Source: a virus (taxonomy: Duplodnaviria > Caudoviricetes). Taken from it: DNA of 64,000 bases. A program made the position numbers and the translations under genes. The stretch is taken from positions 1 to 64,000 of the IMG/VR virus record IMGVR_UViG_2930578203_000001; one strand, given 5' to 3'. Below the pieces are notes generated by a model, which saw nothing but the letters and a program-made list of their open reading frames with translations, was not told the origin of the DNA and searched no databases. Positions 2,671 through 40,702 of this stretch are shown piece after piece; the stretch's first letter is position 1; each line of letters begins with the position of its first letter.

Positions 2671-2707
2671 TCCTTCCTTCGGGACGTTGGCGGTGCTCTC
2701 CGCCAAC
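2671..2707 (-). repeat. conserved hairpin-RBS leader, copy 1
   Basis: GTTGGCGG-AGAGCA-CCGCCAAC-GTCCCGAAGGAAGGA. Confidence 0.9.
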
Positions 2708-2833
2708 ACGGAAGACAGTACAGCAATGAGACTCCCGTGTGTAGTACCCCCTGTAAAACCAGCCCAGCATGCTCCCGCGAGTCTCCTTGCTGCGCCATTC
2801 GAGACTCGCGGGAGCTGTCGAACGTAGGACCGG

Positions 2834-3622
2834 TCAGGCTGCGGTGCCGTACCGCCCCGGGTCCTCTCGTCGCCCGCTCGGCCGGAGGGGAACGACGAAC
2901 ACCGGCACGGCCATCGCGGGGCCGCTCACTGCCGGGGCCGGCACAGACCGCACGGTGACGTCCTGGACCGCGAACAACTCGCCCTGCTCCGGCTCCTCCG
3001 GCAGCATCCGGGCCAGGTGCGCGGCGACGTCCTCCTCCGGGGCCTCCGTCAGGTGGACGCCCCCGACGTGCGCCCACACCTCGGCGGCCACGGTCCCGTG
3101 CTGCTCCCACAGCGGCCGGGAGCTGTCCCGCTCCGGGGTGTCCGGCAAGGTCCCGCGCAGACCGCGCACCAGGGCACTCAGGGCGTCCGCACGGAACTCC
3201 CGGGACCGTACGCGCATGGTGGACGCGTCCTCGTACTCCAAGTGCGGCTCAGCGGCCACAGAGCGCTTCCACGCCCCGAACACCCGGACCGCGCGGGTGG
3301 CGAGTCCTTCCACGGCGTCCAACACCCGCGTCAGGGCGGCAAGGTACCGGGCCAGAGCCCGCGCGCTGCCCTGCACCGTCAGGGGCCGGTCGTCGAGCCC
3401 GCCGTACCGCTCGTCGGTCCCGCAAATCTCCTTATAGTACGACCAGCGAGGGTTCAGGGCGAACGGGGTGGCCGCCTCCACGCCATGGACGTCGGCCAGG
3501 GTCCACGCCACGTCGTGGTGCCGCTTCGCCCTGCGCTTCGACGCGGCGGGGAACACCAGGTCGACGGTGAACCGGCCGGGGGCCGACTCATACGGGCGGG
3601 GGATCTCTACGTACGCGCTCAC
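2834..3622 (-). CDS. hypothetical protein
   Basis: GTG start follows a variant leader element with GAAGGA RBS. Confidence 0.65.
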   Translation of the reverse strand: MSAYVEIPRPYESAPGRFTVDLVFPAASKRRAKRHHDVAWTLADVHGVEAATPFALNPRWSYYKEICGTDERYGGLDDRPLTVQGSARALARYLAALTRVLDAVEGLATRAVRVFGAWKRSVAAEPHLEYEDASTMRVRSREFRADALSALVRGLRGTLPDTPERDSSRPLWEQHGTVAAEVWAHVGGVHLTEAPEEDVAAHLARMLPEEPEQGELFAVQDVTVRSVPAPAVSGPAMAVPVFVVPLRPSGRREDPGRYGTAA

Positions 3623-3630
3623 GCGCTCGT

Positions 3631-3664
3631 TCCTTCCTCTGGGTACGGCGGAAGCTCTCCGCCG
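3631..3664 (-). repeat. conserved leader, variant copy 2
   Basis: CGGCGGAGAGCTTCCGCCG-TACCCAGAGGAAGGA. Confidence 0.65.
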
Positions 3665-3707
3665 CGGGCAGGCCGGCCGCGGGACTGCGACCGGCACACT
3701 CAAGGGC

Positions 3708-4073
3708 TCAGCGGCGGCGCAGCACCCGGCCCAGCAGGGACCGAAGGGACTGGACACGCCCGCGCCGCTCGTACGCCCGGACCATCGCGGCGACGTCGGC
3801 CGGGTCCGGCGAGTTGTGCCAGATCACCTTGATGACCAGGGCCTGACGCAGCTCCCCCTCCGGACGGTCCATCAGCAGCACCGCGCCGTACCGGTCGGGC
3901 TTCCACAGCAGCCAGATGTGATCCGTCTCGGAGCTGTGCTCGAACTCCCCGGTGCGCATGGTCGGCGGGAGACCCAACAGGCGGGCCACCTCGTCGGCGA
4001 ACGACTCGAACGTCCACCTCGGCGACTCAACGGCGTGCAGGTGGGAGCGGAGCCAGGACGGCAGCGCAGACAT
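3708..4073 (-). CDS. hypothetical protein
   Basis: GAGGAAGG RBS before MSALPSW. Confidence 0.6.
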   Translation of the reverse strand: MSALPSWLRSHLHAVESPRWTFESFADEVARLLGLPPTMRTGEFEHSSETDHIWLLWKPDRYGAVLLMDRPEGELRQALVIKVIWHNSPDPADVAAMVRAYERRGRVQSLRSLLGRVLRRR

Positions 4074-4250
4074 GGGCAGGAACCTTCCTCGGAGCGGCGA
4101 ACGGACCACGGCGGGCCCGGACGCCAAGAGCGGGGCAACAGGGCAGACAGGCGGGGTTATGGGACTTCTGGGACCGTCCACACGCGCGCGGGCGCGTATG
4201 GGTCCGTGGGGCGCGGCCCGACCCCTTCGGCCGGGCGGCGCCGGGGCGGA

Positions 4251-5381
4251 TCAGGGACGGCGGTCGCGGATGTACTCGACGGGGACGGCGACGCGGAACC
4301 GGGAGCCGAGCACGCGGCGGGCGTTCTCGGCGGCATCCTCGCGGCCGTCCCGCTTGCGGAACTTCACGACGATCGGCGGGTGCGCGGGGGCGTGCCCGAT
4401 GGGCGAGTCCAGTCCGGCGGTGATCGTCGCGGTGACGGTCCATCCGAGGCCGGAGTCGCTACGGCAGTGCACGCGCACGGTGGGCGTGCCGGTGGCGACG
4501 GCGGACAGCTCCTCGGGCGTGGCGTCGACGGCGTTGTACGCCAGGGCCGCGACGCGGATCTCCTCGGCGGTGCCGGGCATGTCCGTGCCGTGCATCCGGT
4601 GCGCGCGAGGGGCGACGGCCAGGATCACCGCGCGGGCCCGCTCGACGGCGGCGCGCGCCTGGTCGTGGGCGGCGTTGCGGGCGGCGAGGGTGCGGGCGGT
4701 GCGCAGCGCTTCCCACGCCTCCTCGAGGTCCGCGCGGGTCTCGACGATCTCGAGGTGGTGCTCCGGGGCGGAGATCTTGCCCAGGGTGAGCAGGTGGCGG
4801 TCGAGGTTGGCGAGGTCGCGGGGCGCACCACCGAGGGAGGCGTGCACGGTGGACTCGTACGCGGCGAGGGCGGCGTACAGGGGCGTGGTGTCGGGCGCGG
4901 CCGGGGCGGTCTCCTCGGCGGGGGTGGGGCGCTCCTCGACGGCGGCCGGGCGCGGCATGCGCCACAGGCGGATGGACACGGGCTTGCAGTTCCACAGGCG
5001 GCGCGTCTGCTGACGGTGGGAGAGGCGGACGGAGATGGCGTTCGTCAGGGCCTTGTCCCAGCCGCGCGGGTCGTCGTCGCCGCCCTCGGTGATCTCGTCG
5101 CGCAGCGCGTGAACCGCGTCGGTGGTCATGTGGTGGAGCTGTTCGCGGATGGCCCAGTACCGCTCATCCTCGGTGAAGATGACCCGGACGCGTTCGGACT
5201 CGGCGCGCTTGCGGATGATGCGGCGCACCATCTCCTTGTTCGCCTTGCCCTGCTCCTTGTCGGCGTCGCGGCTCATGACGGCGTCGACGAGGTCGTGCGT
5301 GACGACGCGGCCGTTGTGCTCCCTGGCAGCGATGAAGATCTGCAGCGCCATCCAGTCGGCGCGCTCCGTGGCAGTGATCAC
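4251..5381 (-). CDS. hypothetical protein
   Basis: GTG start after leader element; strong GC3 bias. Confidence 0.75.
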   Translation of the reverse strand: MITATERADWMALQIFIAAREHNGRVVTHDLVDAVMSRDADKEQGKANKEMVRRIIRKRAESERVRVIFTEDERYWAIREQLHHMTTDAVHALRDEITEGGDDDPRGWDKALTNAISVRLSHRQQTRRLWNCKPVSIRLWRMPRPAAVEERPTPAEETAPAAPDTTPLYAALAAYESTVHASLGGAPRDLANLDRHLLTLGKISAPEHHLEIVETRADLEEAWEALRTARTLAARNAAHDQARAAVERARAVILAVAPRAHRMHGTDMPGTAEEIRVAALAYNAVDATPEELSAVATGTPTVRVHCRSDSGLGWTVTATITAGLDSPIGHAPAHPPIVVKFRKRDGREDAAENARRVLGSRFRVAVPVEYIRDRRP

Positions 5382-5388
5382 CGGGTGT

Positions 5389-5424
5389 TCCTTCGTTCGG
5401 GACGTCCCGGTTGCTCTCCGGGAC
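5389..5424 (-). repeat. conserved leader, copy 3
   Basis: GTCCCGG-AGAGCAA-CCGGGAC-GTCCCGAACGAAGGA. Confidence 0.9.
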
Positions 5425-5527
5425 TGTGTGGTGGGGCGGTGCGCCCTGCGCCCGTTCCGGCGTGTGCCGGCCTCTCGAGGGCGGGGCGCACCGCCCGCCG
5501 GGGGAAGGGCGGGCGGTGCGGGTGGGG

Positions 5528-5764
5528 TCAGTGCGTGTTGCTCTGTTCGGCCGTGGCCTCGTTGAGGACGTGGACGGTCATGGGCGACCGCTTGATTGCG
5601 GGGAGGGTGAGCAGTCGGGCGCGCTCCTCGACGCTGAGCTTTCCGGCCCACGTTCGGGCGGCCCGGTACTGCTGGCGTGCGAAGTAGTCGCTGAGGCCGC
5701 GCCGGACGTAGGCGGCGATGAGGGGCTCGGGGCAATCGGTGAGCTTGGCAAAGGACACGGACAT
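5528..5764 (-). CDS. small hypothetical protein
   Basis: MSVSFAK start after leader element and promoter motif. Confidence 0.65.
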   Translation of the reverse strand: MSVSFAKLTDCPEPLIAAYVRRGLSDYFARQQYRAARTWAGKLSVEERARLLTLPAIKRSPMTVHVLNEATAEQSNTH

Positions 5765-5772
5765 GGGTGACT

Positions 5773-5809
5773 TCCTTCGTTCGGGACTGCCCCGGTTGCT
5801 CTCCGGGGC
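5773..5809 (-). repeat. conserved leader, copy 4
   Basis: GCCCCGG-AGAGCAA-CCGGGGC-AGTCCCGAACGAAGGA. Confidence 0.9.
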
Positions 5810-5831
5810 GGCGGTGTGAACCGCTGAGAGA

Positions 5832-5937
5832 ACAGTACAGCAATGCGACTCAAGGGCAACAGGAACGCCGTAAGGATCTGTAAACGTGCACGTAAAACGG
5901 CTTGCCGGAGCTCCCGTCGGTCTCATGGCTGTACTTT
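5832..5937. promoter_or_regulatory. divergent promoter pair with shared GAGTCKCATTGCTGTACT-like motif
   Basis: Motif at 5832-5851 (-) and 5918-5937 (+); also at 2715-2734 (-) and 6948-6967 (+); each ends in a TACTNT -10 box. Confidence 0.7.
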
Positions 5938-5980
5938 TCCGCGTTGGCTGTGTACGTTCTGGAGCCCCGCCACCCGGCGG

Positions 5981-6018
5981 CCCGGGGTCGAGCAACCCCG
6001 GGAGTCCCGAACGAAGGA
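5981..6018 (+). repeat. conserved leader, copy 5
   Basis: CCCGGGGT-CGAGCA-ACCCCGGG-AGTCCCGAACGAAGGA. Confidence 0.9.
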
Positions 6019-6026
6019 TCACCACC

Positions 6027-6539
6027 ATGCGCATGCCGCGCCTTCTCACCCGTCGCCCCCGTCCCGCCGCGCTCCTGGCCGCTGGAGCCGCCGCGATCGC
6101 CCTCGGCACCCTGGGCACCCTCGGCGCCTCCGACGCCACCCCGGCCGACTTCGCGACCAGCCCCACCGTCACGCAGGCGGACGTGGTGGAGGCGTACAAC
6201 GACGGCTGGATCGATGGCCGCGCGGACCTGATGGGCGACGACAACCGGGACGGCTACGTCGACGAGGACGAGTCCGGATGGGACTGCGCCACGATGGGCA
6301 ACCGCCAGTGCGGCCCCGGGGTCTCGCCGCAGTGCAAGGGGGAGACCGAGTACGCCGACCTGTGCGCGACGGTAGCGGGACGCCCGGCGTACGCCTGGAC
6401 GGACGCCGACGGCACCCCGCACGCCGTGGCGGCCAGGCGGAAGCTGCTCGCCCGGCTCGACGTCACCCCAGGCACCGAGGAGTTCGCCGCCGCACCGTTC
6501 GCCCTGGACACCCTGTGGGCACAGCACAACGAGGACTGA
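6027..6539 (+). CDS. putative secreted protein with EF-hand-like loop
   Basis: Basic N-terminus plus hydrophobic stretch; DDNRDGYVDEDE motif; 4 Cys. Confidence 0.7.
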   Translation: MRMPRLLTRRPRPAALLAAGAAAIALGTLGTLGASDATPADFATSPTVTQADVVEAYNDGWIDGRADLMGDDNRDGYVDEDESGWDCATMGNRQCGPGVSPQCKGETEYADLCATVAGRPAYAWTDADGTPHAVAARRKLLARLDVTPGTEEFAAAPFALDTLWAQHNED

Positions 6540-6613
6540 CCGCCCGCTGACCCCGGCCGGGGCCGGGGGCGCACTGCTCGCGCCCCCGGCCCGGCCCCGG
6601 ACAGGAGACCGCA

Positions 6614-6838
6614 GTGACCGCCGCCAAGCTCCCCGGGCGCAACTGGCTGCGCATGGCGCCCGCCGACTTCGACCGCGACGCCCCGGCCGTCCCGGACGCT
6701 TCCGACCGTCACGTCCCCGCCGTGCCCGACGAGTGCGGCACCGTGCCGCTGTTCGGGGAGGACCCGGCGGCCGCGCGCACCCCCGGCACCCGCGTGCCGG
6801 CCGCGACGTTCCCCGAGCAAGCTGACACCCTGTTCTAG
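6614..6838 (+). CDS. small hypothetical protein
   Basis: AGGAG RBS, GTG start. Confidence 0.55.
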   Translation: MTAAKLPGRNWLRMAPADFDRDAPAVPDASDRHVPAVPDECGTVPLFGEDPAAARTPGTRVPAATFPEQADTLF

Positions 6839-6973
6839 GCCGCGAGGATAGTGCAGCCGCGAGACTTCCGGCGCACGGCGCGACCGACGTACAACCGCGT
6901 TCCACCTGCGAAATCCTCGATTCTTCCCGGGATCTCGTGGGACCCGCGAGTCTCATTGCTGTACTATCAAGGG

Positions 6974-7012
6974 GTTGGCGGAGAGCACCGCCAACAAGTC
7001 CCGAACGAAGGA
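6974..7012 (+). repeat. conserved leader, copy 6
   Basis: GTTGGCGG-AGAGCA-CCGCCAAC-AAGTCCCGAACGAAGGA. Confidence 0.9.
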
Positions 7013-7019
7013 TCACCCC

Positions 7020-7403
7020 ATGGCTTCTGTCGCCGCCCGCCGCGCACTCCGCGACCGCGTCCGCGCCCACCGCGCCGCCTCCGCCGCCCGTCGCGAAGTC
7101 GCCCGCGCCGCCCGCCGCGTCCGCCACACCGCCCGCTCCCTGACCACGCACGTCATCGCCACCGGTGCCGACCGCGCGACCGCCAAGGGCGTCGTCAAGG
7201 CCCTCCAGGGCGTCGCCAAGACCGCCCGCACCAACGGCCTCAAGGGCAAGCGGGCCCGCATCCGCCGCACCGCCCAGGGCTTCAAGCGCCACGCCGTCAC
7301 CGCCTACCGGTACACCCGCGCCCAGGTCTCCCAGATCGCCGCGCAGTACAAGCCGCGCAAGGCCGAGTACAAGGCCGTCCGCGCCGCGCTGATCGCCGTC
7401 TGA
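7020..7403 (+). CDS. highly basic Arg/Lys/Ala-rich protein, putative nucleic-acid binding
   Basis: ATG after leader element; composition. Confidence 0.75.
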   Translation: MASVAARRALRDRVRAHRAASAARREVARAARRVRHTARSLTTHVIATGADRATAKGVVKALQGVAKTARTNGLKGKRARIRRTAQGFKRHAVTAYRYTRAQVSQIAAQYKPRKAEYKAVRAALIAV

Positions 7404-7492
7404 CCGGCCCCCAGACCGCCGGGGCGCGGCCCTCCCCCGCCGCGCCCCGGCCCCCCACCTTCACCCAGCACACCCCGGAGACGGAGACACCC

Positions 7493-8299
7493 ATGCCCGC
7501 CACGCCCAACGCCCTCGCCGCCGCCCACCGCGCCCGCACCATCGCCACCATCGCCCGCACCCGCGCCGCGATCCCCGCGCCCGTGCCGAACGCCGACGGC
7601 CGCACCGCCCTGACGGACATCGCCACCCTCCTCGACGACGCCGCCACGGTGCTGGAGACCGATGAGCCCGGCACGTGGGACGGCATCGTCATCACGAACG
7701 CGCTGCCCTTCGACGCCTCGGTCGTCCTGCACGCCGCCGACGGCATTGCCGCCGCCAACCCGGCCATCGGCTTCCCGCCCCGCTTCACGCAGTACGTCAC
7801 CGCCCCCGTGCTCGGCAACGAGGTCGAGCTGCCCCTGTCGCTCCTCCCCGGCGGCCCCGTGCTGATCGCCCGGGAAGGCGACCTGTTCGCCCGGCTCCTC
7901 GCCATCCACGGCCACCTGCGGCTCATACCCCCGGCCCGGGACACGACCGCGCTCCTGGAAGGCGCATTCACCCTGCACTGGAAGCACGCCCACCTCGCCG
8001 CGTCCGAAGCCACCATGACCGACCGCCCGGCCAACCGACCCGCCGTCCCGGCCGCCGTCGAGATCGCGACCCCGGGCACCACCATGGCACTGAGCCGCGC
8101 CCACGACTCGTACGGACCGACCGTGATGTACGGGCTCACAAGCCGCCGTCTGCCTTGCCACGTCAGCGACGAGGGCGTCACTCACACCGCCGTCCGCATG
8201 GTCTCCCACCTCGGCGCCACCATCGCCACCTGCGACGACGACCGCCACCGCAACGCCGCCGCCGTCGCCGCGCGGGAGCTGTACGACTCCCTCGGCTGA
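7493..8299 (+). CDS. hypothetical protein
   Basis: GGAG RBS, MPATPNAL start, strong GC3 bias. Confidence 0.7.
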   Translation: MPATPNALAAAHRARTIATIARTRAAIPAPVPNADGRTALTDIATLLDDAATVLETDEPGTWDGIVITNALPFDASVVLHAADGIAAANPAIGFPPRFTQYVTAPVLGNEVELPLSLLPGGPVLIAREGDLFARLLAIHGHLRLIPPARDTTALLEGAFTLHWKHAHLAASEATMTDRPANRPAVPAAVEIATPGTTMALSRAHDSYGPTVMYGLTSRRLPCHVSDEGVTHTAVRMVSHLGATIATCDDDRHRNAAAVAARELYDSLG

Positions 8300-8439
8300 C
8301 CAGCCGGGCGGACGCGACACAAGCCGCGCCCGCCCGGCCCACTGGCCGACGGCCACACAGCCCGCCGCGCCCCGGGGCCGGACGTACGAGTCGCCCGGGC
8401 GCAACGCAAGCACCACCCGCATGACCAGATCACCCAGCA

Positions 8440-8474
8440 GGAGAGCACCGCGCCGGACCGTCCCGAACGAAGGA
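8440..8474 (+). repeat. conserved leader, copy 7 (left stem arm degenerate)
   Basis: GGAGAGCACCG...GTCCCGAACGAAGGA. Confidence 0.8.
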
Positions 8475-8482
8475 ACCGCACC

Positions 8483-8764
8483 GTGCCCCTGTCCGCCGTC
8501 ACCCCCTCCAAGACCGCCGCCCCGCTCGCCACCCTCCTGCCCCCATGGCGTCGCCTGAACCCTCGGCCCCGTCCTGTGCGGCATCCGCCCCAACGCCACC
8601 ATGTCCGGATCACGAACGGCCGCCACGCCCTGATCGTCGTCGAGCAGGCAGGCCGCATCGAGGTGTACGCCGACCGGCCCGACATGTTCCCCGTCTGCCA
8701 ATCATCTGCGGTAGTGCCACTACACCAGGTGACGGATCTTGTGCATATGCGTGCCGGCAAGTAG
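8483..8764 (+). CDS. hypothetical protein, 3' end possibly replaced at the defence-island junction
   Basis: Leader element upstream; base composition changes after about 8700. Confidence 0.5.
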   Translation: MPLSAVTPSKTAAPLATLLPPWRRLNPRPRPVRHPPQRHHVRITNGRHALIVVEQAGRIEVYADRPDMFPVCQSSAVVPLHQVTDLVHMRAGK

Positions 8765-8933: not shown

Positions 8934-11033
8934 ATGAGATCGGCGTACAGGCTATGGCACGAAGTGCTCTCTGCAGAGTTCTTCGGTGCGGACCACGCGC
9001 TGCGGAGCACCGTTCTCTATGTCGATGACGAGATTGAACGGCAGCTCGCCGAGCTCTACGGCATCGAAACGAGTCTGGCCCAGGCCGTCGCCGACGAACT
9101 CAACTGGAGCGACCCGGAAAGACCGCTGTTCAACCACGTCCAGCGCGAGTGCGTGCAATGGGTGAACGGCGGAAGCGAGGGGCCGCCGCCTAGCCTTCCG
9201 GTACTCGCCCTGTCCGTACTGGCCGCTACCCGCATGGCCTCATCCGACGGGATGCTGAGGAGTAACTTCTACAAGCGCTGGTTTCAGGTGTTCGGCGAAC
9301 AGTTGTCCGGCTACCGCGCGAACAAGCTGAGGAAGGCATTCGAAGACGTCGCTGAGATGTGGGAGCAGCTGGACAGTTGGCTGCAGGAAACGGGCGGTCT
9401 CTTCGGCACCAGTACGGTGAGCACTGACGACTTCTACTGGAAGATCGGCTACCCCATCTCGCAGGCTCTGGTCCGCGGTTTGGACCGGCACGCCCTCACT
9501 CGCTTCTTCGCCACTACTCGCCTAAGGCCGCACAATCAGACCAAGGTCTCCGGCCGAGAGCTCTTGCGGCGGCTCCGTGTCTGGACAGCGGGCAGGGAAC
9601 GAGACCTGTCCCCCCGGCTCATGGAGGAGCTCGCAAAGGCTGCCGACACTGGCGAGACTCTCATCACCAGTCTCCTCAGACGACTTGCCGATGACTGGGA
9701 CGGCACCCTCCACGAGCCGGAGCACGGGCGTCGGCGCCGGGCTCTCGGGCTCCGGCTCATGGTCGCGGACCGCGGAAGGCGACTGGACTGGCTGGCCGAG
9801 GCTGTCGAAGCGACGCCCGAGACCGAGGTCTGCCTGCCAGGCGGGCGGACTTTCACGCTCCGTAAGGAGTACGGCAACGTCTACGGAGGGTTGGAGTCTC
9901 TCCGGCCATCCCCTCAGCAGTTGGCATACGGCGTACGTCTCGAGGGTGAGGCTCTGGTCCTTGAATGGGTGCCGCAGGAGGTCGTGCTGCTGCGGATGCA
10001 CCCGTACCTCGGCGAGTGGGTGAGCACCGAGTATTTCGAGCCTGGCGAGCAGCACTGGATCCTTGCCGCCGACTCCGCCGTCGCTGAAGTGCGCTCTATG
10101 GTCAATGCTCTTGGCGGCCGGACGGTCCGCGAGACGGCGGCGCCGACGGTGGGTTGGAAGCTGTTCAAAGGCGTCCGTGCGGTCAACGGGGGTGCCTTCG
10201 CTAGTACTTTGGATCGCGGTGGAGCGCATGCCTACGTCCTTGAGCCCCAGATCCGGCAGCACGCCGAGTTGTCCGGCGGGCTCCGCATCGCGCCCGAGTA
10301 CCGGGTGGGTTCCGGCGTTGCAGGCCACTTCCTCCGCGGCGGCGGCCCGGATCTGCTGCTGCCCGCGAGTGAATCCCCGGATGGGCTCGTGGAGGTCGTG
10401 CTCGACGGCTGCACTGAAAGGTTGCGTGCAGACCCGCGCATTCCCTTCCCGCTGCGCCTCGTCCCTCTGGACGAGGGGGAGCACCAGGTGGGCACAGCGA
10501 AGAGCAGCCAGGTCTTCACCTTGTACGACGGGCTGCACGACGGGCTTCCGCCAGGGACCGGGATGCTCGGATACAACTGCAACGGCAGCGCCCGGCGCAG
10601 GCTGAGCGAGGTCGGCGACTCCGACGCGGCTATCCGAGGTGCCTATGCACCGGACAGCATCAGGCTGCCGCGCACCGAGCTTGTGCGGAGTGATGTCCTG
10701 GAAGCGGTGCTCATCGATCACCGCGGCAGTGCGCGCAGAGTCAAGCAGCAGTCAGTCCCAGCGTGGATGGTGTCACGGCTGCCGGAAGAGGCCCGCGGCT
10801 CCTGCCTTGAGGTCGAGGTGCCTGAAGGATACGTGTGGCTGATATATCGGACGGTCGCCCGGTGGTCCGTCCGGGCACTGGCCGCAGCAGCGGACATTCC
10901 CGATCCTGCGCCGTCCCATGATGACTACGCCTGGGCACATGCGGTACTGAGCGCGGCCGAGCGCTCGCACGCCCCGGTCTGGCTCAGGTATGTAGCGGCG
11001 GCAGAAGCAATCGCCGGAAAGCGGGGAGCCTGA
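8934..11033 (+). CDS. Druantia-like accessory protein (DruF/DruH N-terminal-like)
   Basis: First gene of a coupled operon with a DUF1998 helicase; YRLWHEVL..FF and IGYPISQAL segments resemble this family from memory. Confidence 0.6.
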   Translation: MRSAYRLWHEVLSAEFFGADHALRSTVLYVDDEIERQLAELYGIETSLAQAVADELNWSDPERPLFNHVQRECVQWVNGGSEGPPPSLPVLALSVLAATRMASSDGMLRSNFYKRWFQVFGEQLSGYRANKLRKAFEDVAEMWEQLDSWLQETGGLFGTSTVSTDDFYWKIGYPISQALVRGLDRHALTRFFATTRLRPHNQTKVSGRELLRRLRVWTAGRERDLSPRLMEELAKAADTGETLITSLLRRLADDWDGTLHEPEHGRRRRALGLRLMVADRGRRLDWLAEAVEATPETEVCLPGGRTFTLRKEYGNVYGGLESLRPSPQQLAYGVRLEGEALVLEWVPQEVVLLRMHPYLGEWVSTEYFEPGEQHWILAADSAVAEVRSMVNALGGRTVRETAAPTVGWKLFKGVRAVNGGAFASTLDRGGAHAYVLEPQIRQHAELSGGLRIAPEYRVGSGVAGHFLRGGGPDLLLPASESPDGLVEVVLDGCTERLRADPRIPFPLRLVPLDEGEHQVGTAKSSQVFTLYDGLHDGLPPGTGMLGYNCNGSARRRLSEVGDSDAAIRGAYAPDSIRLPRTELVRSDVLEAVLIDHRGSARRVKQQSVPAWMVSRLPEEARGSCLEVEVPEGYVWLIYRTVARWSVRALAAAADIPDPAPSHDDYAWAHAVLSAAERSHAPVWLRYVAAAEAIAGKRGA

Positions 11034-33683: not shown

Positions 33684-34631
33684 TCACTTCTTCGTGTAGA
33701 CGGTGCCGCAGTGGAAGCACAGGGCGACCTCTTCATCGGGCTCAGCGCGGGTGTTGGCCAACATCACTCCGTCCTGCCCGCAGGCTGGGCAATTTTGCAG
33801 TCCGGCCGTGTCGTCCTCGTCGAGGACTTCCTGCCAGTAGGACACGGCGGCGTCTGTGGGCGATTCAAAGGTCCGCAAACAGAACCGGCAAGCCACGGGA
33901 CTGTCGCCTACCACCAGAGCTACCCGTCGGCAGGACGGGCAGTGCACCACGCGCTCGGCGACCTCGTCCAGGCCGCCGGCCAGGTCCTGCTCGCGCTTCT
34001 TGACGAGCACTTCGATGTCCCGCAGACGTCTCCGGACGGCTTCCATCGTGGTGGCTACCTCCGTCGCTTCGGTCGACAGGCTCCGCTGCAGGTGACGCGG
34101 AACGAAGTCGATAAGGAAGCTCAGCACTCCGGCCGCGCGTGATTCGACGGCGTAGGCGCTGGCCTTATGCCCGTAGTGGGTCAGAGCGTTCCGAGTCTTC
34201 GCCAGGTCGCCAATGGCCTTGCGTTCCTTGGCGGTGATCGACACACCGACGATCTGCGTGAGGCGGTCCAGGGCGGCAGTTGTGCCGCAGCTATCGAAGC
34301 TGCCCGACTCGTACGCGGCGCGCGTGGCATTGCCCGGGTCCTTGAAGACCAGGCTCCAGTGCTCGCGCACGAGGCGGGCCTTGAGCAGTACCTCGGTGGC
34401 CGCCTGGAGATGGAGGACGCCGTACTTCAGGTGGCGGTCGCTGAGCCAGAGCGGGGCTGGCTGGGAGAACTGCGGGTGCTTAGCGGCTTCGGGCCACAGC
34501 GACCCCGCGTCCATCGGGACCTGAATCTTGCCCGTCAGGTACAGCACCGCGCTGCTGAGGTAGTCCATGCCGTTGCGCACCAGAGTGAAATCCATCTCGG
34601 GACGCTCGGGCAACGACTCGTCGCTGGGCAA
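33684..34631 (-). CDS. HEPN-like domain protein with C-terminal zinc ribbons
   Basis: ATEVLLK and RNALTH (Rx4H) motifs; CPSC, CRFC, CPAC, CFHC. Confidence 0.65.
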   Translation of the reverse strand: MPSDESLPERPEMDFTLVRNGMDYLSSAVLYLTGKIQVPMDAGSLWPEAAKHPQFSQPAPLWLSDRHLKYGVLHLQAATEVLLKARLVREHWSLVFKDPGNATRAAYESGSFDSCGTTAALDRLTQIVGVSITAKERKAIGDLAKTRNALTHYGHKASAYAVESRAAGVLSFLIDFVPRHLQRSLSTEATEVATTMEAVRRRLRDIEVLVKKREQDLAGGLDEVAERVVHCPSCRRVALVVGDSPVACRFCLRTFESPTDAAVSYWQEVLDEDDTAGLQNCPACGQDGVMLANTRAEPDEEVALCFHCGTVYTKK

Positions 34632-34673: not shown

Positions 34674-34699
34674 CCGACAACAATCACAGTTGTTGTCGG
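34674..34699. repeat. 10-6-10 inverted repeat in a divergent intergenic region
   Basis: CCGACAACAA-TCACAG-TTGTTGTCGG. Confidence 0.8.
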
Positions 34700-34733
34700 C
34701 TACTCATCAGTAACACCGTAGAGTCTTCCTCGA

Positions 34734-34770
34734 AGGGCGGAGAGCACCGCCCTGAGTCCCGAACGAAGGA
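34734..34770 (+). repeat. conserved leader, copy 8
   Basis: AGGGCGG-AGAGCA-CCGCCCT-GAGTCCCGAACGAAGGA. Confidence 0.9.
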
Positions 34771-34778
34771 GCACCGCC

Positions 34779-34967
34779 ATGGCGGGCTGGATCAACAGCA
34801 CCCAGCAGCAGCGCGACCACAACGGGCAGCGGAACATCTGCGCCGCAGACGGCCAGCCCGGCACCGACGCCGACCCGCTCGTGAAAACGACCGACGGATA
34901 CCGCGTCCACCTCTCCGACACCACCGACCCGGCCAACGGCTTCTACGGCCAGCAGCAGGTGAGTTGA
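34779..34967 (+). CDS. small hypothetical protein
   Basis: ATG follows leader copy 8. Confidence 0.7.
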   Translation: MAGWINSTQQQRDHNGQRNICAADGQPGTDADPLVKTTDGYRVHLSDTTDPANGFYGQQQVS

Positions 34968-34968
34968 G

Positions 34969-35321: not shown

Positions 35322-35552
35322 ATGCCCGTCTCAGAAGCGCCAGAGCCGTCAGCCGAAGAGGTCGTGAAGGGACTATTCGAGGAGACCGGACTTCACCCGT
35401 CCCTCGTTCCCACTTACACCGCCGCGGTGCTCGCCCTGCGCGACCGCGAGAAAGCCGCGGAACTCCGCGCAGCCGGTTTCGGCGCCGCCGCTGATTTCAT
35501 CGAGCCGGACTCTGCCGTCATTGCCGAGGCGTTCGGCCGCGAGGACCAGTAG
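35322..35552 (+). CDS. hypothetical protein
   Basis: GAGGAG RBS; ECF-like promoter upstream. Confidence 0.55.
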   Translation: MPVSEAPEPSAEEVVKGLFEETGLHPSLVPTYTAAVLALRDREKAAELRAAGFGAAADFIEPDSAVIAEAFGREDQ

Positions 35553-35600
35553 CCCCAACTCTCGCGCACCGCGCGACCGTACGGCGCCCGGTGCGCGAGT

Positions 35601-35637
35601 TCCAGCGGAGAGCACCGCCGGAGTCCCGAAGGAAGGA
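35601..35637 (+). repeat. conserved leader, copy 9
   Basis: TCCAGCGG-AGAGCA-CCGCCGGA-GTCCCGAAGGAAGGA. Confidence 0.9.
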
Positions 35638-35643
35638 ACCGCG

Positions 35644-36555
35644 ATGTCCCGTCGCAAGATCGTCACCATCCTGCTCCCCCCGCCCGAGCCGGAGCCGGAG
35701 TACGAGCTGTACCAAGAGCTGAGGCACGACGCCGAGTTGAGGAGCCGGCCTCCGCTGGGACCGGACGACCTTCGGCGCATGACGGAGGTGTCCGCGCGCC
35801 GCGGCCGCGACTGGTGCACGGCCGTACTGGGGCGGGGCTTCCCTGGGATCGAACGCGTTTCCAGCGTCGACGGCTGGATGCTGGTCGCCGCCGACGAGCT
35901 GAACCTCGACCCGCCGCTCCCCCGCCGAATCGTCGAGGAGCGAGAAGCCGCGGAACAGCGGCGCAAGGCCGAAGCAACCCTGGCCGCGGTGAAGTTGGAG
36001 ACGGAGAAGCGCCAGTGGGACCTGCTAGTCGGCAGCGCGCCCGTCACGCTGACCGTGCACGAGAACACGCGGCACACGGGCCCGAATGGCTCCACCCGGC
36101 ACGCCGTGCCCCCGGCCGACGTCGTCTCCGGAAAGGCGCGGAAGCATCCCGCGGACAGGGGGCTGTGCGAGACGCCCGACCGCGCTGACCCACTGCACCT
36201 GGGCGATGCCGTCGACCTCCCGCCCAACTGCGTGCGCTGCCTGGACTACGCAGCCAAGATCCGCGCCGCAGACGCTCCGGCCCCGCCGACGGACGCCGAG
36301 GCGGCCCTGCTACGGCTCATCTCCTCCGGCATGGTCTTCACCTTCAGTGTCCGCGGCTGCATCACGATCCGAGACACCAGCCAGCGCAGCCGCGCCGCCT
36401 GGGGGCACCTGGGCCGGAAGGTCGACGTCGCGGTGAAGAAGCTCCAGAAGAAGGGCTGGGTGTCCCAGGACCAGGAGTACGGCGCGACGCAAAAGGGAGT
36501 CCGCGGCCACCGTTGGCGACTCACCGAAGCCGGTACCGCCGCACTGGAGGGCTGA
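35644..36555 (+). CDS. hypothetical protein with Zn-binding and C-terminal wHTH-like motifs
   Basis: Follows leader copy 9; H..LC..CVRC; LQKKGWV...WRLTEAG. Confidence 0.7.
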   Translation: MSRRKIVTILLPPPEPEPEYELYQELRHDAELRSRPPLGPDDLRRMTEVSARRGRDWCTAVLGRGFPGIERVSSVDGWMLVAADELNLDPPLPRRIVEEREAAEQRRKAEATLAAVKLETEKRQWDLLVGSAPVTLTVHENTRHTGPNGSTRHAVPPADVVSGKARKHPADRGLCETPDRADPLHLGDAVDLPPNCVRCLDYAAKIRAADAPAPPTDAEAALLRLISSGMVFTFSVRGCITIRDTSQRSRAAWGHLGRKVDVAVKKLQKKGWVSQDQEYGATQKGVRGHRWRLTEAGTAALEG

Positions 36556-36559
36556 CGCC

Positions 36560-37195
36560 ATGGTCCGCATCACCGCCAAGCAGTACCGGGAAATCCTGGC
36601 GCAACGCCGCCGCGGGGCTCAGCCTCCCGCGGCGGCGGCCGCCGTCCCGAAGAAGCCGGCCGCGTCCCCGGGCCCACCGTCCATCCCGACGCCGCCCGCG
36701 GTCGAGCCGCTCCTCGCCGGGCTTCCCCACCCGGGACGGCACTGGACCCTGCTCATGCCGTACGCCGAGGAGATGCTGACCAGCAACAAGCGGTACCGGC
36801 ATTGGAGCGTTGAGCACAGCATCCGCAAGCGGCTCCGCGCGGACGCCACCGGCCTCAGCCGACCCATGCAGATACCACAGCTCCAACGCGCGGCCATCTT
36901 CTACGTGCTGCACCCGCGGAAACTCAACCGCTCCCGAGACCCCGGGAACTGGGCCCCGACCGCGAAGGCGTACGTCGACGGCTTGGTGACCCCCAACCCG
37001 GATCTGCCTCGCCTTCGTCACCTTCTCCCGGACGACGACCACGAGCACCTGCTCGGCCCGAACCCCCTCATGGGTGCGCCCGTAGAGACCGGCTTCGCCC
37101 GGATGTCCCTCGTCATCGTCGAACTTCACGGCACGCTGACCAGCGCGAACGGCGAAACCGTAACAGGAACCGGCACTTCGACGTACAGGAACTGA
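36560..37195 (+). CDS. RusA-like Holliday junction resolvase
   Basis: LTSN, RDPGNWAPTAKAYVDGL, LPDDD acidic motifs. Confidence 0.7.
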   Translation: MVRITAKQYREILAQRRRGAQPPAAAAAVPKKPAASPGPPSIPTPPAVEPLLAGLPHPGRHWTLLMPYAEEMLTSNKRYRHWSVEHSIRKRLRADATGLSRPMQIPQLQRAAIFYVLHPRKLNRSRDPGNWAPTAKAYVDGLVTPNPDLPRLRHLLPDDDHEHLLGPNPLMGAPVETGFARMSLVIVELHGTLTSANGETVTGTGTSTYRN

Positions 37196-37235
37196 GGGCT
37201 GGCCCGCCCTCACCTCAACGAGGAGATGCCCCTCC

Positions 37236-37877
37236 ATGAGCACCAGACACCCCGTGTCCCTCCAGATCTACGACCGCAACGGCGTACCTGAGCACACGCC
37301 GATCTGGGACCGGGCGCGCTCCGTCAACACGGTCATCGCCGCGTTCGCCCGCGGCGGCACCCTCCTCGACCGCGACGGCGTCGACGAGCGCCTCGCCGAG
37401 ATCGCTGACAAGGCCGCGTGCTCGCTCCTCCGCGACCGCTGGAAGGACGACTTCCAGGTCGCCGCGTACGGCGAACTGCTCTGCACCATCGCCGCCCTGC
37501 GCGAAATCCTCGGCTACTCCCCCACGCCCACGGCCGTTGAGGTCTTCGACTGGGCCCGCCAGCAGAAGCAGAAGGCCGCCGAGGCGATCGACGGCCCCGT
37601 GCAGGACTTCGTCATCCAGTTCCTCAACGGGCCGTACTCCGGGGTGATCCTGACGTTCCCGGGCGAAACGCAGGGGCCGGGCGGAGGGCCGGGCCTATCC
37701 CTCACCGTCCCGATCGCGTGGGGGGACGACAGCGACCCCGGCCGCGGTGAAGCCCGGTACGCGCGGACCGAGGAGCCCACCGGCGAAGGACTGTGGCTGT
37801 ACCGGCTTGCTGAAGACGTTCCCGACGGCGCCCGCCCGCACATCACCGTCCCGGACCGGAAGGGCGTCCGCGCGTGA
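37236..37877 (+). CDS. hypothetical protein
   Basis: GAGGAG RBS; F..GPY.G motif. Confidence 0.65.
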   Translation: MSTRHPVSLQIYDRNGVPEHTPIWDRARSVNTVIAAFARGGTLLDRDGVDERLAEIADKAACSLLRDRWKDDFQVAAYGELLCTIAALREILGYSPTPTAVEVFDWARQQKQKAAEAIDGPVQDFVIQFLNGPYSGVILTFPGETQGPGGGPGLSLTVPIAWGDDSDPGRGEARYARTEEPTGEGLWLYRLAEDVPDGARPHITVPDRKGVRA

Positions 37878-38116
37878 TATCCCTGCTTACCGCCGTCATC
37901 CCGTCCCCCGCCGCCGACGCCGCTCACGACGCCGCGCACGCGACGGCCGCCCGCTTCCGACAGGGCGCCTACTCCGTGCCGTGCCCGGAGTGCCACGTCC
38001 CGGCCGGCGTGCTGTGCCTCGCCCGACGCGACGTGCACACCGCCCGTCGGAACGCATACCGGCAGAACCCCGAGACCACCGGCTTCGTGCCCCTCCTCGT
38101 GGCGCGTGTCCGATGA
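37874..38116 (+). CDS. small zinc-finger protein
   Basis: CPEC..PAG..C...H..R. Confidence 0.65.
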   Translation: MISLLTAVIPSPAADAAHDAAHATAARFRQGAYSVPCPECHVPAGVLCLARRDVHTARRNAYRQNPETTGFVPLLVARVR

Positions 38117-38373
38117 GCGAAACCACCGCGGCCGAAGCCGCCCGAAAAGCCGCCACCTGGGCGCACTGCGCCGAGGACGCCAACAAGTACGCGCACGACC
38201 ATGAGCAGCAGGCGAGGGAGCACGCGGTCCAGCGGGACAGCGGCCAGGCCGCCGCCTACACGTCGCGGGCCGAGGAGTGGGTGCGGCTTCGCGGCACGGC
38301 TGTGGACATGGCGAACATGTGGGCCAACGTTGCCGGCGCCCTGCAACTCGCTGAGCTGGGTGAGCACTCGTGA
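38113..38373 (+). CDS. hypothetical protein
   Basis: ATGA-coupled operon member. Confidence 0.6.
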   Translation: MSETTAAEAARKAATWAHCAEDANKYAHDHEQQAREHAVQRDSGQAAAYTSRAEEWVRLRGTAVDMANMWANVAGALQLAELGEHS

Positions 38374-39035
38374 CGGCCCTCGCGGTAGAGGCCCCAGCAG
38401 CCCGGCCCGAGTGGGACGGCCGCCTGGTCGTGCGCGCCGCGGGCCGCCCGCTCCTGCACATCGGCGCCGAGGGCGTCAACGCGCCCACGGTGCCCATGTT
38501 CACCGTGGCGCTGGAGTGCGCTCCGGACGCCGAACAGGCCCCCGGCGTACGGCCGTGGGACGGACCCGTCACCGAAGCGAACATCTGCCCGGCCTGCCTG
38601 CGCTCCCTGCGCGGTGAACCGGAGCCCGAGGCGCCCCGCCTCGTCCCCGCCGGCGTCGTCGAAGCCCTGCCCCAGCCAGTTCCCGAGCCAGCCCGCGACG
38701 GCCGCCACCTCCAGGCCGTTCCCAACCTCCCGGTGTACGCCGAGGCGCCTCTGCCCGCCGAGCACGGCGGCCGCCCGATCACCTGGTCCCGCTGGACGAC
38801 CGCGCCCGTCATCACCCACCACGATCCCTCGTGCGAGTGTTGCGGGGACCCGGGCCCCGGCGAGATGGCCGGCGGCCGCCAGAGCAACCCGATGTCGCGG
38901 ACCGACCCCTTGCGCCGCTACGTCGCCTACCGCTGCACCGCGTGCCAGGAGATGACCGCGTACGAGCAGGTCGGCAGCGAGCTCAACACCATCGCACATC
39001 ACAAGTCGCGCGCCCCGAAGGACTGCAACCGATGA
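38370..39035 (+). CDS. hypothetical Cys-rich protein
   Basis: CPAC, CECC, CTAC motifs; coupled. Confidence 0.65.
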   Translation: MTALAVEAPAARPEWDGRLVVRAAGRPLLHIGAEGVNAPTVPMFTVALECAPDAEQAPGVRPWDGPVTEANICPACLRSLRGEPEPEAPRLVPAGVVEALPQPVPEPARDGRHLQAVPNLPVYAEAPLPAEHGGRPITWSRWTTAPVITHHDPSCECCGDPGPGEMAGGRQSNPMSRTDPLRRYVAYRCTACQEMTAYEQVGSELNTIAHHKSRAPKDCNR

Positions 39036-39295
39036 GCACCACCCTCACCCTCGTTCGCGACACCAGCATCCTCGAGCAGCGCGTCGCCCTGATCGCGTGC
39101 GGTCAGCGTCCCGGCAAGACCCAGGCGTGCGTAACCCACCGCAGCAAGGGCGCCGCCCTGCTGAACATCGCCTCCACGGGGGCCGCGGACGCCCTCGCAG
39201 CGGCGATCTGCGGAACCGGGAAGGGGCCCGCCTGCCACGACTGCAAGGACAAAGCCGCAGGGATCATCAGCGCCTACAACGAGGAGATCCGGTGA
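39032..39295 (+). CDS. small Cys-rich protein with internal duplication
   Basis: Two A.I.CG....AC..H/C..K units. Confidence 0.6.
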   Translation: MSTTLTLVRDTSILEQRVALIACGQRPGKTQACVTHRSKGAALLNIASTGAADALAAAICGTGKGPACHDCKDKAAGIISAYNEEIR

Positions 39296-39750
39296 CAACG
39301 GCCGTAGCGCTCCAGGACGCAGAGATCTTCGACGTGGACGGCACGCTCGTCGACGTCGAACCCATCCGCCACCTGATCAAGGGTCCCGGCGGATTCACCG
39401 CCTTCCACCGCGCCAGCATCAACTGCCAACCGCACCAGTACATCGTCGACGCCGCTCGCGAAGCCCACGCCCGAGGCTGGGCTGTGCTCATCGTGACCGG
39501 TCGCGATCGACGCTGGGAACGGCTGACCGCCATGTGGCTCGCCCTTCACGGTGTGCCGTCCGACGGGCTGTGGATGCGCGGCCGCGGAGACTACCGCCCG
39601 GACTACGTCATCAAGCGGGAGCTGCTGCGCTCCATCCGCCGGACGTACAACGTGGTCCGCGCCTGGGACGACAACCCGAACGTCATCCGCCTGTGGCACG
39701 AGGAGGACATCCCCGTCGAGGTGGTCCCCGGATGGGTGGACGAACAGTGA
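39292..39750 (+). CDS. HAD-family phosphatase (polynucleotide kinase 3'-phosphatase-like)
   Basis: FDVDGTL, VTGR, MR..GD.RPD..IK, DDNP motifs. Confidence 0.85.
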   Translation: MTTAVALQDAEIFDVDGTLVDVEPIRHLIKGPGGFTAFHRASINCQPHQYIVDAAREAHARGWAVLIVTGRDRRWERLTAMWLALHGVPSDGLWMRGRGDYRPDYVIKRELLRSIRRTYNVVRAWDDNPNVIRLWHEEDIPVEVVPGWVDEQ

Positions 39751-40061
39751 GCCAGCCCGGGAACCACGAGATCACCGCCGCCGATCTGGCGACGGGCGAA
39801 CTGTCCTACGCGCTCCCCCTCGAAGGCTGGAGCGGCATGACACTGCACTGCCAGGTCGACGCCATCGGCCCGTCCGACCGACACCCCGACCTCGTGAAGC
39901 TCGAGGTGTCGTTCCCCCTGGTGGCGCGCGCCGGAACCAACTGCCCGACGTGCGGACCGACGACTCCCGAACAGCGTCACCGCCGCCCGGGAGTGCAGCG
40001 CTGCTCGAACTGCAAGGAGCACCTGGGGCCAAACCCGCTCGTCGACGGCGCAGTCCTGTGA
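39747..40061 (+). CDS. hypothetical zinc-ribbon protein
   Basis: CPTC...CSNC; coupled. Confidence 0.55.
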   Translation: MSQPGNHEITAADLATGELSYALPLEGWSGMTLHCQVDAIGPSDRHPDLVKLEVSFPLVARAGTNCPTCGPTTPEQRHRRPGVQRCSNCKEHLGPNPLVDGAVL

Positions 40062-40259
40062 GGGGCATCTACCACCTGGTCACCGACGGGCTCACCCAGA
40101 CCACCCCATGTAGGAAGCTGCACCAGGTGCATGAGGTCGTGATCTGGCAGCTGTGGCCGAGCGAACTCGCCCGCGACTGGCTCGGGCTGGAGCTGCGGCC
40201 GCTGCCTCTCCTCCCCCGTACGTGCGGACGCTGATGGAGACCGCCCGCCCCCTCCTCTC

Positions 40260-40291
40260 ATCTCGCCGAGATTGAGTAATCTCGGCGAGAT
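40260..40291. repeat. 32-bp palindrome, lox-like 12-8-12 layout
   Basis: ATCTCGCCGAGA-TTGAGTAA-TCTCGGCGAGAT. Confidence 0.8.
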
Positions 40292-40353
40292 CTTCCAATC
40301 TCCCCAAAAGATCGTCACAATGAGGGCTGTTGCTGATCACGATGGGAGTGCCG

Positions 40354-40611
40354 ATGCCGGCCGACACCGACTCACCACGAGTCCTACGGCTCACGTTCGA
40401 GTTCCACGTCCCGCGCGGCCTGCGGGTCAACATCCGGAACGACCGCCGTTTCACCGCTGTTGAAGCCTTGATTGCCGCGGTGCAGAGCCTCGCCGGTCAG
40501 GTCTTTCCGTGGGCCAGCAAGATGACGGTCCGGCACGAGTGGTCCTACGCCTGGTGGGACGAGACCGTGGAACGCGAGTTGCCGACCACGGAGAAGAACA
40601 CACCGAAGTAG
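40354..40611 (+). CDS. hypothetical protein
   Basis: GGAG RBS. Confidence 0.55.
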   Translation: MPADTDSPRVLRLTFEFHVPRGLRVNIRNDRRFTAVEALIAAVQSLAGQVFPWASKMTVRHEWSYAWWDETVERELPTTEKNTPK

Positions 40612-40666
40612 CCGCGGCCGCGCGACAGATCCACAACCGAACACCTGGCGTCATGGCCAGACCCCA

Positions 40667-40702
40667 CCGGCGGAGAGCACCGCCGGAGTCCCGAACGAAG
40701 GA
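40667..40702 (+). repeat. conserved leader, copy 10
   Basis: CCGGCGG-AGAGCA-CCGCCGG-AGTCCCGAACGAAGGA. Confidence 0.9.

Follow-up and report, generated by a model that had tools for sequence, protein, structure and literature searches.

H-leaders: a repeated start-associated hairpin motif ahead of actinophage genes

Why do genes with little in common carry the same leader in front of their start codons? The question is raised by a 64,000-nt stretch of viral DNA (positions 1 to 64,000 of the IMG/VR record IMGVR_UViG_2930578203_000001, hereafter the window; the whole record is 121,298 bp), in which a small hairpin, a linker and a Shine-Dalgarno (SD) sequence recur just upstream of open reading frames (ORFs). 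A first-pass annotation had listed ten such leaders between positions 2,671 and 40,702 and proposed that they may define a post-transcriptional regulon. We find that these leaders, which we call H-leaders, are an uncatalogued motif that recurs at gene starts in actinophages, in this case with an RNA hairpin that can be demonstrated. Selection of the RNA type acts on the structure of this hairpin, whose pairing is kept by compensatory changes.

Copies of the leader and selection on the stem

An H-leader is laid out as a hairpin of 5-10 bp with a variable stem and a fixed top, a short unstructured spacer, the SD sequence GAAGGA and a start codon. The linker pattern GTCCCGAASGAAGGA has nine exact matches in the window, at 2671, 5389 and 5773 on the minus strand and at 6004, 6998, 8460, 34756, 35623 and 40688 on the plus strand; an unrelated match with two mismatches lies at 50859. 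Shuffled sequence holds 0.41 matches on average and 3 at most, and none of 100 shuffles reached 10. In the whole record the pattern occurs exactly 10 times, the tenth copy (107722-107736, minus strand) being outside the window. The ten leaders first listed in the window are thus the nine exact linkers and a variant at 3631. All 10 full copies of the record and the 3631 variant stand in sense orientation just 5′ of a start codon, and in each copy the linker ends 6-9 nt ahead of ATG or GTG. Searched over the record, a covariance model of the hairpin (derived as described below) recovers the 10 full copies with E ≤ 3.6e-7, the 3631 variant with E = 0.0011 and a partial match at 112.5 kb with E = 0.007; beyond these it finds nothing under E = 0.1. 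A repeat finder, run independently, recovers the linker and promoter-box families. The flanks of the copies bear out the anatomy originally described (stems, loop, linker and start spacing), with one A.C mismatch in the copy at 35623.

The case for selection on the pairing rests on an unbiased control and on covariation. For the control, public collections were scanned for GAGCA followed after 5-14 nt by CCCGAASGAAGGA, pairing not being required. A stem of at least 5 bp stood beside the loop in 31 of the 38 matches on Streptomyces or Kitasatospora contigs and in 34 of the 53 on IMG/VR contigs, against 4 of the 94 on contigs of other taxa, which are chance occurrences. The IMG/VR matches that lack a stem come from unrelated metagenomic contigs, apart from the bulged orthologue of the copy at 8440. 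We then aligned on their loops 34 diverse copies with six-nucleotide loops, all preselected to have 5 pairs or more, so that the inner pairs are biased. In this alignment 89.5% of cells are paired (60.9% after shuffling) and double changes occur at 8 of 8 pairs; RNAalifold predicts 7 pairs from it, all seven with double changes. The covariance model derived from this alignment and searched over 68 loci returned 129 matches, 119 of them distinct, with 92.0% of cells forming standard pairs as compared with 59.9% in shuffles. The first-pass annotation had named such a model as part of a check on its proposal. The covariation score is 0.693 against 0.159 in shuffled alignments (0 of 500 reach it), and registers shifted by 1-3 columns score at most 0.152. 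At the six inner stem positions, 37 G.U cells stand against 19 A.C cells under a rule that treats both alike, a modest asymmetry which suggests that the sense-strand RNA is favoured. Strong covariation, together with the rarity of stems among chance matches, upholds the earlier view that selection acts on a single-stranded structure.

What stays constant lies outside the stem. Among 107 hairpins tallied, the loop is AGAGCA in 55, AGAGCAA in 27 and AGAGCAG in 9 (91 of the 107), and the closing pair is G-C in 107 of the 119 distinct copies. The loops of the copies in the record read AGAGCA, AGAGCAA, CGAGCA or CAGAGCAA, and AGAGCTT in the 3631 variant. The linker is rich in A and C. When copies are folded singly, it and the SD come out partly unpaired, with mean unpaired probabilities of 0.51-0.80 for the linker. 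Sequestration of the SD was rejected as a shared feature, as only two copies (2671 and 34756) have an upstream CUUCC that can pair with GGAAG. No complement of the loop that could make a loop-to-linker pseudoknot was seen in the leaders inspected, and the record holds no separate antisense copy elsewhere: matches to the complementary pattern are the reverse strands of leaders, or lie in or beside coding sequence and lack the leader context. The copy flanks inspected hold no terminal repeats or target duplications.

Inheritance of the leader and its place on the transcript

Part of the region is ~79-81% identical to the Streptomyces phage Gilgamesh, and the region also matches a 129.6-kb circular plasmid of Streptomyces sp. 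NBC_01220. Gilgamesh is a temperate phage of 129 kb, isolated on S. lividans and annotated with terminase, portal-MuF, capsid, tape measure, two tyrosine integrases, ParA/ParB, an FtsK-like translocase and a sigma factor. The record itself encodes a portal-MuF protein, a 5,686-amino-acid (aa) SNF2-helicase protein, an integrase, FtsK/SpoIIIE, an AAA ATPase, an IstB-like ATPase and a sigma factor with sigma-70 regions 2 and 4. Judged by the gene kinds that it shares with Gilgamesh, the record is a Gilgamesh-like phage-plasmid of Streptomyces rather than a plain conjugative plasmid.

The covariance model has 17 matches at E<0.01 on the NBC_01220 plasmid and 14 on Gilgamesh; five IMG/VR relatives have 9, 10, 12, 5 and 16 matches at E<=0.001. 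In the region compared between the three full genomes, a motif-bearing leader in one genome has motif-bearing counterparts ahead of the matching gene in the other two, and the stem at a given position is retained although the genomes are only ~80% identical. Across a family of elements, the leader is passed down at each position. Loop and linker matches are also found on a Streptomyces chromosome. The two imperfect copies of the record have better preserved counterparts: those of the 3631 leader are canonical in two relatives, and those of the 8440 leader have a 6-bp stem with one bulged C.

The spacer before the SD follows a different rule, being uniform within each genome where the stems vary from copy to copy. 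It reads CCCGAAC in the lineage of the present record and CCACGAAG in the Gilgamesh lineage; in full, the spacer is GTCCCGAAC in the present record and six relatives, GCCCGAAC in three relatives, CACCCCGAAC in one relative and ACCACGAAG in Gilgamesh. The linker had been called invariant; this holds within a lineage and fails between lineages, where four spacer types are found. A 16-mer, GGCGGAGAGCACCGCC, was tried as a probe for the family and discarded. It occurs in 116 stretches of IMG/VR, mostly in one conserved coding sequence of unrelated contigs, and by our reading of the listing ~18 are true leaders, all with the Gilgamesh-type spacer.

The earlier statement that the motif belongs to no described family stands. 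Rfam 15 at gathering thresholds has 0 matches in the 64-kb window, and a permissive Rfam scan of 2500-8600 turns up nothing beyond mir-593 (E=8.6) and L2 leader (E=1.1), both well short of their thresholds. In the literature searched, supplementary files aside, we found no description of the motif.

Upstream of several hairpins lies a conserved 20-nt promoter/operator-like box, GAGTCTCATTGCTGTACTRT, present six times in the record, four of these in the window. On the minus strand it occurs at 2715..2734 as GAGTCTCATTGCTGTACTGT, whose -10-like TACTGT ends 5-7 nt ahead of the hairpin, and at 5832..5851 as GAGTCGCATTGCTGTACTGT; on the plus strand it occurs in a diverged form at 5919..5937 (GGTCTCATGGCTGTACTTT) and at 6948..6967 as GAGTCTCATTGCTGTACTAT, which ends 6 nt ahead of the hairpin. 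The two boxes outside the window lie at 107796-107809 (+) and 112653-112666 (-) of the record, and in Gilgamesh the box takes a lineage-specific form, GTTTCCnnTGGTGTACTRT. The GTCTCATT part of the box makes an inverted pair (AATGAGAC ... GTCTCATT) near 107.75 kb, between divergent genes, an arrangement that looks like a repressor operator.

The hairpin had been said to follow shortly after a -10 box in three copies, and we find such boxes 5-9 nt ahead of the stem at 2671 (TACTGT), 6998 (TACTAT) and 34756 (TAGAGT, 34719-34724). Across all fetched loci, 43 distinct hairpins have GTACTRT within 30 nt upstream; 33 of them begin 3-8 nt after it, 17 at exactly 6, and the remaining 10 begin 21-23 nt after it, with a small second hairpin filling the gap. 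In copies that lack the box, a strong GC-rich hairpin closing the preceding cistron terminates 2-15 nt upstream; these intergenic hairpins have no U-tracts and were not called as terminators. Should TACTRT be a -10 box of the TANNNT type, transcripts would begin at the base of the stem. The hairpin would then sit either at the predicted 5′ end of a transcript or directly after a preceding GC hairpin.

One leader departs from the common spacing. At ~112.6 kb, on the minus strand, a box and a hairpin (GGCTGGG/AGAGCGA/CCCAGC) are present but the SD stands ~115 nt downstream of them, a layout that is kept in several relatives. The hairpin is therefore separable from the ribosome-binding site. Over 112500-112680 of the record, the hairpin is followed by a conserved AT-rich stretch (CCTAGGTGTAACAAAAATCGGCGG), the linker-like GTCCCAAAC, AAGGAAGGAACACC and ATG.

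A near-perfect 26-bp palindrome, CCGACAACAATCACAGTTGTTGTCGG, occupies 34674-34699, between the divergent genes at 33684-34631 (-) and 34779 (+); the -10-like TAGAGT follows ~20 nt downstream. Both Gilgamesh and the NBC_01220 plasmid have a similar palindrome in the equivalent position, and the palindrome is probably an operator.

Individual leaders and the genes behind them

In the record, the NBC_01220 plasmid and Gilgamesh, all copies stand ahead of non-structural genes, an AAA ATPase gene among them. The downstream genes had been described as unrelated orphans plus a traB leader, and this agrees with what we find: 9 of the 10 downstream ORFs tested have no Pfam family, and the 'traB' gene encodes an FtsK-like translocase that is reached through an upstream ORF (uORF).

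Of the leaders on the minus strand, the one at 2659..2709 has its hairpin at 2686-2709 (GTGTTGGCGG/AGAGCA/CCGCCAAC), its linker and SD at 2671-2685 and an ATG at 2661-2659 that opens a 140-aa orphan (63.6 bits, E=1e-14). The variant at 3620..3668 combines a hairpin at 3646-3665 (CGGCGG/AGAGCTT/CCGCCG) with a degenerate linker, TACCCAGAGGAAGGA, and the GTG of a 262-aa orphan (21.2 bits, E=0.0011); its original description as a variant is borne out by loop, linker and model score alike. The leader at 5379..5427 (hairpin 5404-5424, GTCCCGG/AGAGCAA/CCGGGAC; linker 5389-5403; 47.6 bits) serves the GTG of a 376-aa orphan, and a long GC hairpin terminates 6-13 nt upstream of it. At 5762..5812 (hairpin 5789-5809, GCCCCGG/AGAGCAA/CCGGGGC; linker 5773-5787; 42.3 bits), the leader precedes the ATG of a 78-aa orphan, and a small additional hairpin (GCGGT tcac ACCGC) separates the promoter-like box from the main hairpin.

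On the plus strand, the leader at 5979..6029 (hairpin 5981-6002, CCCGGGGT/CGAGCA/ACCCCGGG; linker 6004-6018; 55.2 bits) leads to the ATG of a 170-aa protein whose N-terminus resembles a signal peptide. That at 6972..7022 has a hairpin at 6974-6995 (GTTGGCGG/AGAGCA/CCGCCAAC, a stem used by two copies), a linker at 6998-7012 and an ATG at 7020 that starts a 127-aa arginine-rich basic protein (61.8 bits). The leader at 8432..8485 has a decayed 5′ arm, with loop and 3′ arm at 8438-8456, linker at 8460-8474 and GTG at 8483 (34.6 bits); the left arm is lost here, as had been noted, and relatives keep the bulged 6-bp stem. Further on, 34731..34781 carries a hairpin at 34734-34753 (AGGGCGG/AGAGCA/CCGCCCT), a linker at 34756-34770 and the ATG of a 62-aa orphan (59.9 bits). 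The leader at 35599..35646 (hairpin 35602-35621, CCAGCGG/AGAGCA/CCGCCGG, with the one A.C mismatch; linker 35623-35637; ATG; 45.2 bits) begins 2 nt after the end of an 11-bp GC hairpin and heads a run of genes with 4-nt start/stop overlaps (35644-40234).

The last leader of the window, at 40664..40713 (hairpin 40667-40686, CCGGCGG/AGAGCA/CCGCCGG; linker 40688-40702; 66.2 bits), has its ATG at 40711 and opens an 18-codon uORF, 40711-40767 (+). This uORF encodes MPSRTSLPCRLSTLTLSR, and it stops within the start region (GAGGTGAGGTGAC GTG) of the FtsK/SpoIIIE-family (TraB-like) gene at 40774-42777. In three relatives the uORF has 17-20 codons, an N-terminus MPSR[TS], a C-terminus ...SR or ...AR, and a stop inside GAGGTGA(G/C)GTGACGTG. 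Such conservation suggests translational coupling or a regulatory leader peptide.

The 127-aa protein behind the 6998 copy, encoded at 7020-7403 (+), has an isoelectric point of 12.0, 26% Arg+Lys and a long arginine-rich N-terminal helix. Its Gilgamesh counterpart is gp129. It has 87 homologues, all of which, where a source is named, come from Streptomyces; many lie on contigs of 121-134 kb, and many species of the genus are represented. Pfam has no family for it, and PHROGs places it in phrog_10890, a family of unknown function. Its profile finds nothing better than E = 0.32 among PDB sequences, and with its AlphaFold model, a confident one (pLDDT 89.1), the best Foldseek match is ribosomal protein S7, which is non-significant (E = 0.33, TM 0.23). 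The names 'L20' and 'HK97 gp10' are automatic database labels on two homologues and were set aside as unsupported. As a reader of the leader hairpin, the protein is a candidate and a lead only.

A second repeated intergenic hairpin lies just after stop codons at 980-1008, 1773-1801 and 7420-7449. It has a fixed stem, CGGGGCGCG ... CGCGCCCCG, conserved and free of covariation, a variable loop and no U-tract; beside the 3 copies in the window, a looser core pattern has 9 matches in Gilgamesh and 2 in the NBC_01220 plasmid. In a comparison of 7403-8483 with 9221-10678 and 9758-11521 of two relatives, counterparts of Gilgamesh gp131 and gp132, two genes that both relatives have, seem to be missing from the record, a difference judged from gene order and leader sequences alone. 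Leader and hairpin units border it, and may mark points of exchange of accessory genes.

The ORF of 5,686 codons runs as one frame from 59975 to 64000 and on to 77035 of the record, directly after the portal-MuF gene; its Gilgamesh counterpart is gp48, a 13.9-kb gene. We considered the protein as an N4-like RNA polymerase and rejected it, since Pfam finds SNF2/helicase domains only and no PDB sequence match to a polymerase was obtained. Possibly it is, like DarB, an anti-restriction protein packaged into the virion.

Readings of the leader and known systems

What, then, is the leader for? The hairpin can be read as a 5′-end element because its stem starts at the predicted +1 or behind the hairpin at the 3′ end of the cistron before it. 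A specific reader of the single-stranded parts is suggested because the loop and closing pairs are invariant and the spacer has changed in concert, whereas the stems have not. Such a co-evolving reader is simpler than gene conversion, since conversion would have to skip the stems. The lineage-only linker, the placement at a 5′ end or after a hairpin, and the hairpin that stands ~115 nt from its SD all point to a 5′-end role or factor binding over a pure ribosome-binding enhancer. We therefore tentatively favour, at somewhat less than an even chance, a reading in which H-leaders are protein-recognised leader hairpins that protect the 5′ end and co-ordinate how stable and/or how well translated the messages of about a dozen non-structural operons are. 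The hairpin would act at the RNA level, on the sense strand, as the 5′-end element of the message, which it would cap and protect. The invariant loop and closing pairs, with the lineage-specific spacer, would dock a trans-acting factor, for which the simplest source is the element itself, and this factor would set mRNA stability and/or translation jointly for these non-structural operons. In the present record these would be the accessory orphans, the TraB-like translocase leader and the AAA-ATPase operon. We infer all four components of this reading: where transcription starts, that the hairpin protects the message, that a binding factor exists and that the operons are co-regulated.

Several points weigh against it. 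A generic sigma-70 scanner calls no promoter at these regions, and the putative transcription starts are placed by the -10-like boxes. The excess of G.U over A.C is modest, at ~2:1, in copies that are phylogenetically non-independent. The alignment of 34 copies was preselected for pairs and the larger one was fitted to the model, and both lean to structure, the scan for loop and linker being the unbiased control. The sole candidate binder examined is the 127-aa basic protein, for which neither sequence nor fold gave a significant match. A host factor or an intrinsic fold, in place of a factor of the element's own, could also account for the conserved loop. The constant adjacency of the SD would also fit a purely translational role, and the proximity to promoters would also fit antitermination.

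The leader might do without any factor. The hairpin would then be a 5′-terminal barrier to 5′-end-dependent RNases and would shield a standard, unstructured ribosome-binding stretch from the sequence upstream, with no binder and no regulon. The stem base at the predicted +1, the operon-internal copies that follow the hairpin of the upstream cistron, the A/C-rich linker that is partly unpaired along with the SD, and the freedom of the stem sequence all fit this. There are also precedents in the ompA and aprE leaders, 5′-terminal stabiliser stem-loops that likewise have a stem at or near the 5′ end (a predicted one in H-leaders) and a strong SD close by. Those stabilisers are single-gene features without a conserved loop, however, whereas H-leaders are multi-copy, with an invariant loop and a lineage-specific spacer. 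A barrier needs no specific loop, yet 91 of the 107 loops are AGAGCA with or without a further A or G and 107 of the 119 closing pairs are G-C, and a genome-wide uniform, lineage-specific spacer is unexpected if the host ribosome is the sole reader. For these reasons we think a factor-free leader rather unlikely. We regard it as unlikely that the hairpin is a loading site of the nut/boxB kind, at which a small phage protein would bind the loop on nascent RNA and let polymerase read through the intergenic GC hairpins. In lambda, the boxB hairpin of each of the two nut sites has a GNRA-like pentaloop and is bound by the arginine-rich N protein. H-leaders resemble this in being, in most promoter-bearing copies, short promoter-proximal hairpins on the nascent RNA of a temperate phage, with loop and closing pairs conserved rather than the stem. 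GC-rich hairpins punctuate the downstream transcription units, one leader (~112.6 kb) has its hairpin far from the SD, and behind one promoter and hairpin a conserved arginine-rich protein of 127 aa is directly encoded, which recalls the lambda order pL-nutL-N. Antitermination does not, however, require 10-17 sites per genome, nearly all fused to an SD at a fixed short distance; the loop, with 6-7 nt, differs from a GNRA-like pentaloop, and the intergenic hairpins are the same U-tract-free ones that were not called as terminators. No N homologue or boxA-like element was identified, boxA not having been searched for, and no similarity to N, Q, NusG or LoaP turned up, although no specific test for them was made.

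Two further possibilities would deny the hairpin a role as RNA. That the leaders are repeats spread by mobility or recombination with their own ribosome-binding site, like REP2 or CREN, or boundaries that promote gene shuffling, would account for the same linker and SD ahead of unrelated genes and for the differences in gene content between relatives, which come in units bounded by such leaders. The copies are not near-identical, however, their stems differing within a genome where loop and linker are fixed, and each stem is retained at orthologous leaders across three genomes. Position-specific stems across ~80%-identical genomes amount to vertical inheritance under structural selection rather than recent transposition, and the flanks inspected lack terminal repeats and target duplications; we consider mobility very unlikely. 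Just as improbable, if not slightly more so, is a signal in the DNA itself, either an operator or a hairpin promoter extruded from supercoiled DNA as for the virion RNA polymerase of phage N4. The early promoters of N4 do follow the same logic, in which the stem covaries while the loop and the downstream sequence are fixed, and a giant 5,686-aa protein is encoded here next to the portal gene. Yet this protein has SNF2/helicase domains and no match by sequence to any solved RNA polymerase. N4-type promoters have a stem of 5-7 bp and a loop of 3 nt, not 6-7, and in H-leaders a longer or shorter stem changes the distance between loop and linker. On the sense strand G.U cells outnumber A.C cells, and an operator bound by protein would conserve its arms, not vary them.

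A bolder form of the factor-binding reading takes loop and spacer as the RNA operator of a regulator encoded by the element, with the 127-aa protein as the best lead. The 10-17 sites would then make up a self-contained, co-evolving regulon working post-transcriptionally or by antitermination. Its logic would be like that of N and boxB, but with each site fused to a ribosome-binding site and marking the start of a non-structural operon. This version seems to us improbable.

Small leader hairpins are unsurprising in themselves. H-leaders occur in a large group of Streptomyces phage-plasmids, for which the motif is a compact signature that may serve to recognise these elements, integrated copies included, and it could also become a standard 5′ UTR (untranslated region) part for gene expression in Streptomyces. 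The closest parallel is the start-associated sequence (SAS) and extended SAS (ESAS) of cluster K mycobacteriophages, described in 2011 (PMC3203893). The SAS has a 13-bp consensus, GGGATAGGAGCCC, next to start codons (PMC12699233), and the ESAS consists of imperfect 17-bp inverted repeats of conserved sequence with a 4-13 bp spacer, upstream of the SAS, for which the authors saw little support for an mRNA hairpin (PMC3203893; PMC12699233); the function of both was still listed as unverified in 2025 (PMC12699233).

The two systems are alike in being actinobacteriophage motifs present ~10-20 times per genome, just upstream of the start codons of non-structural genes, kept at matching gene families, built from a start-proximal fixed sequence and an upstream inverted repeat, and different in consensus from lineage to lineage. 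They differ in their hosts and phage groups and in the repeat itself: the arms of the ESAS are 17 bp long and conserved, whereas those of H-leaders have 5-10 bp and are free to change in compensatory fashion beneath a conserved loop. The SAS consensus with up to 2 mismatches has 0 matches in the window, where 2.2 are expected by chance. The likeness drawn in the first-pass annotation is apt as an analogy, and H-leaders are not members of that system. They are the cleaner case: the small hairpin has clearly evolved by compensatory change, its loop is invariant, and within lineages the spacer changes in concert. Leader mutants are directly testable, as Gilgamesh was isolated on a laboratory host, Streptomyces lividans. 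If a regulator encoded by the element does read them, H-leaders would be the first mechanistically tractable case of the 'start-associated sequence' phenomenon of actinophages.

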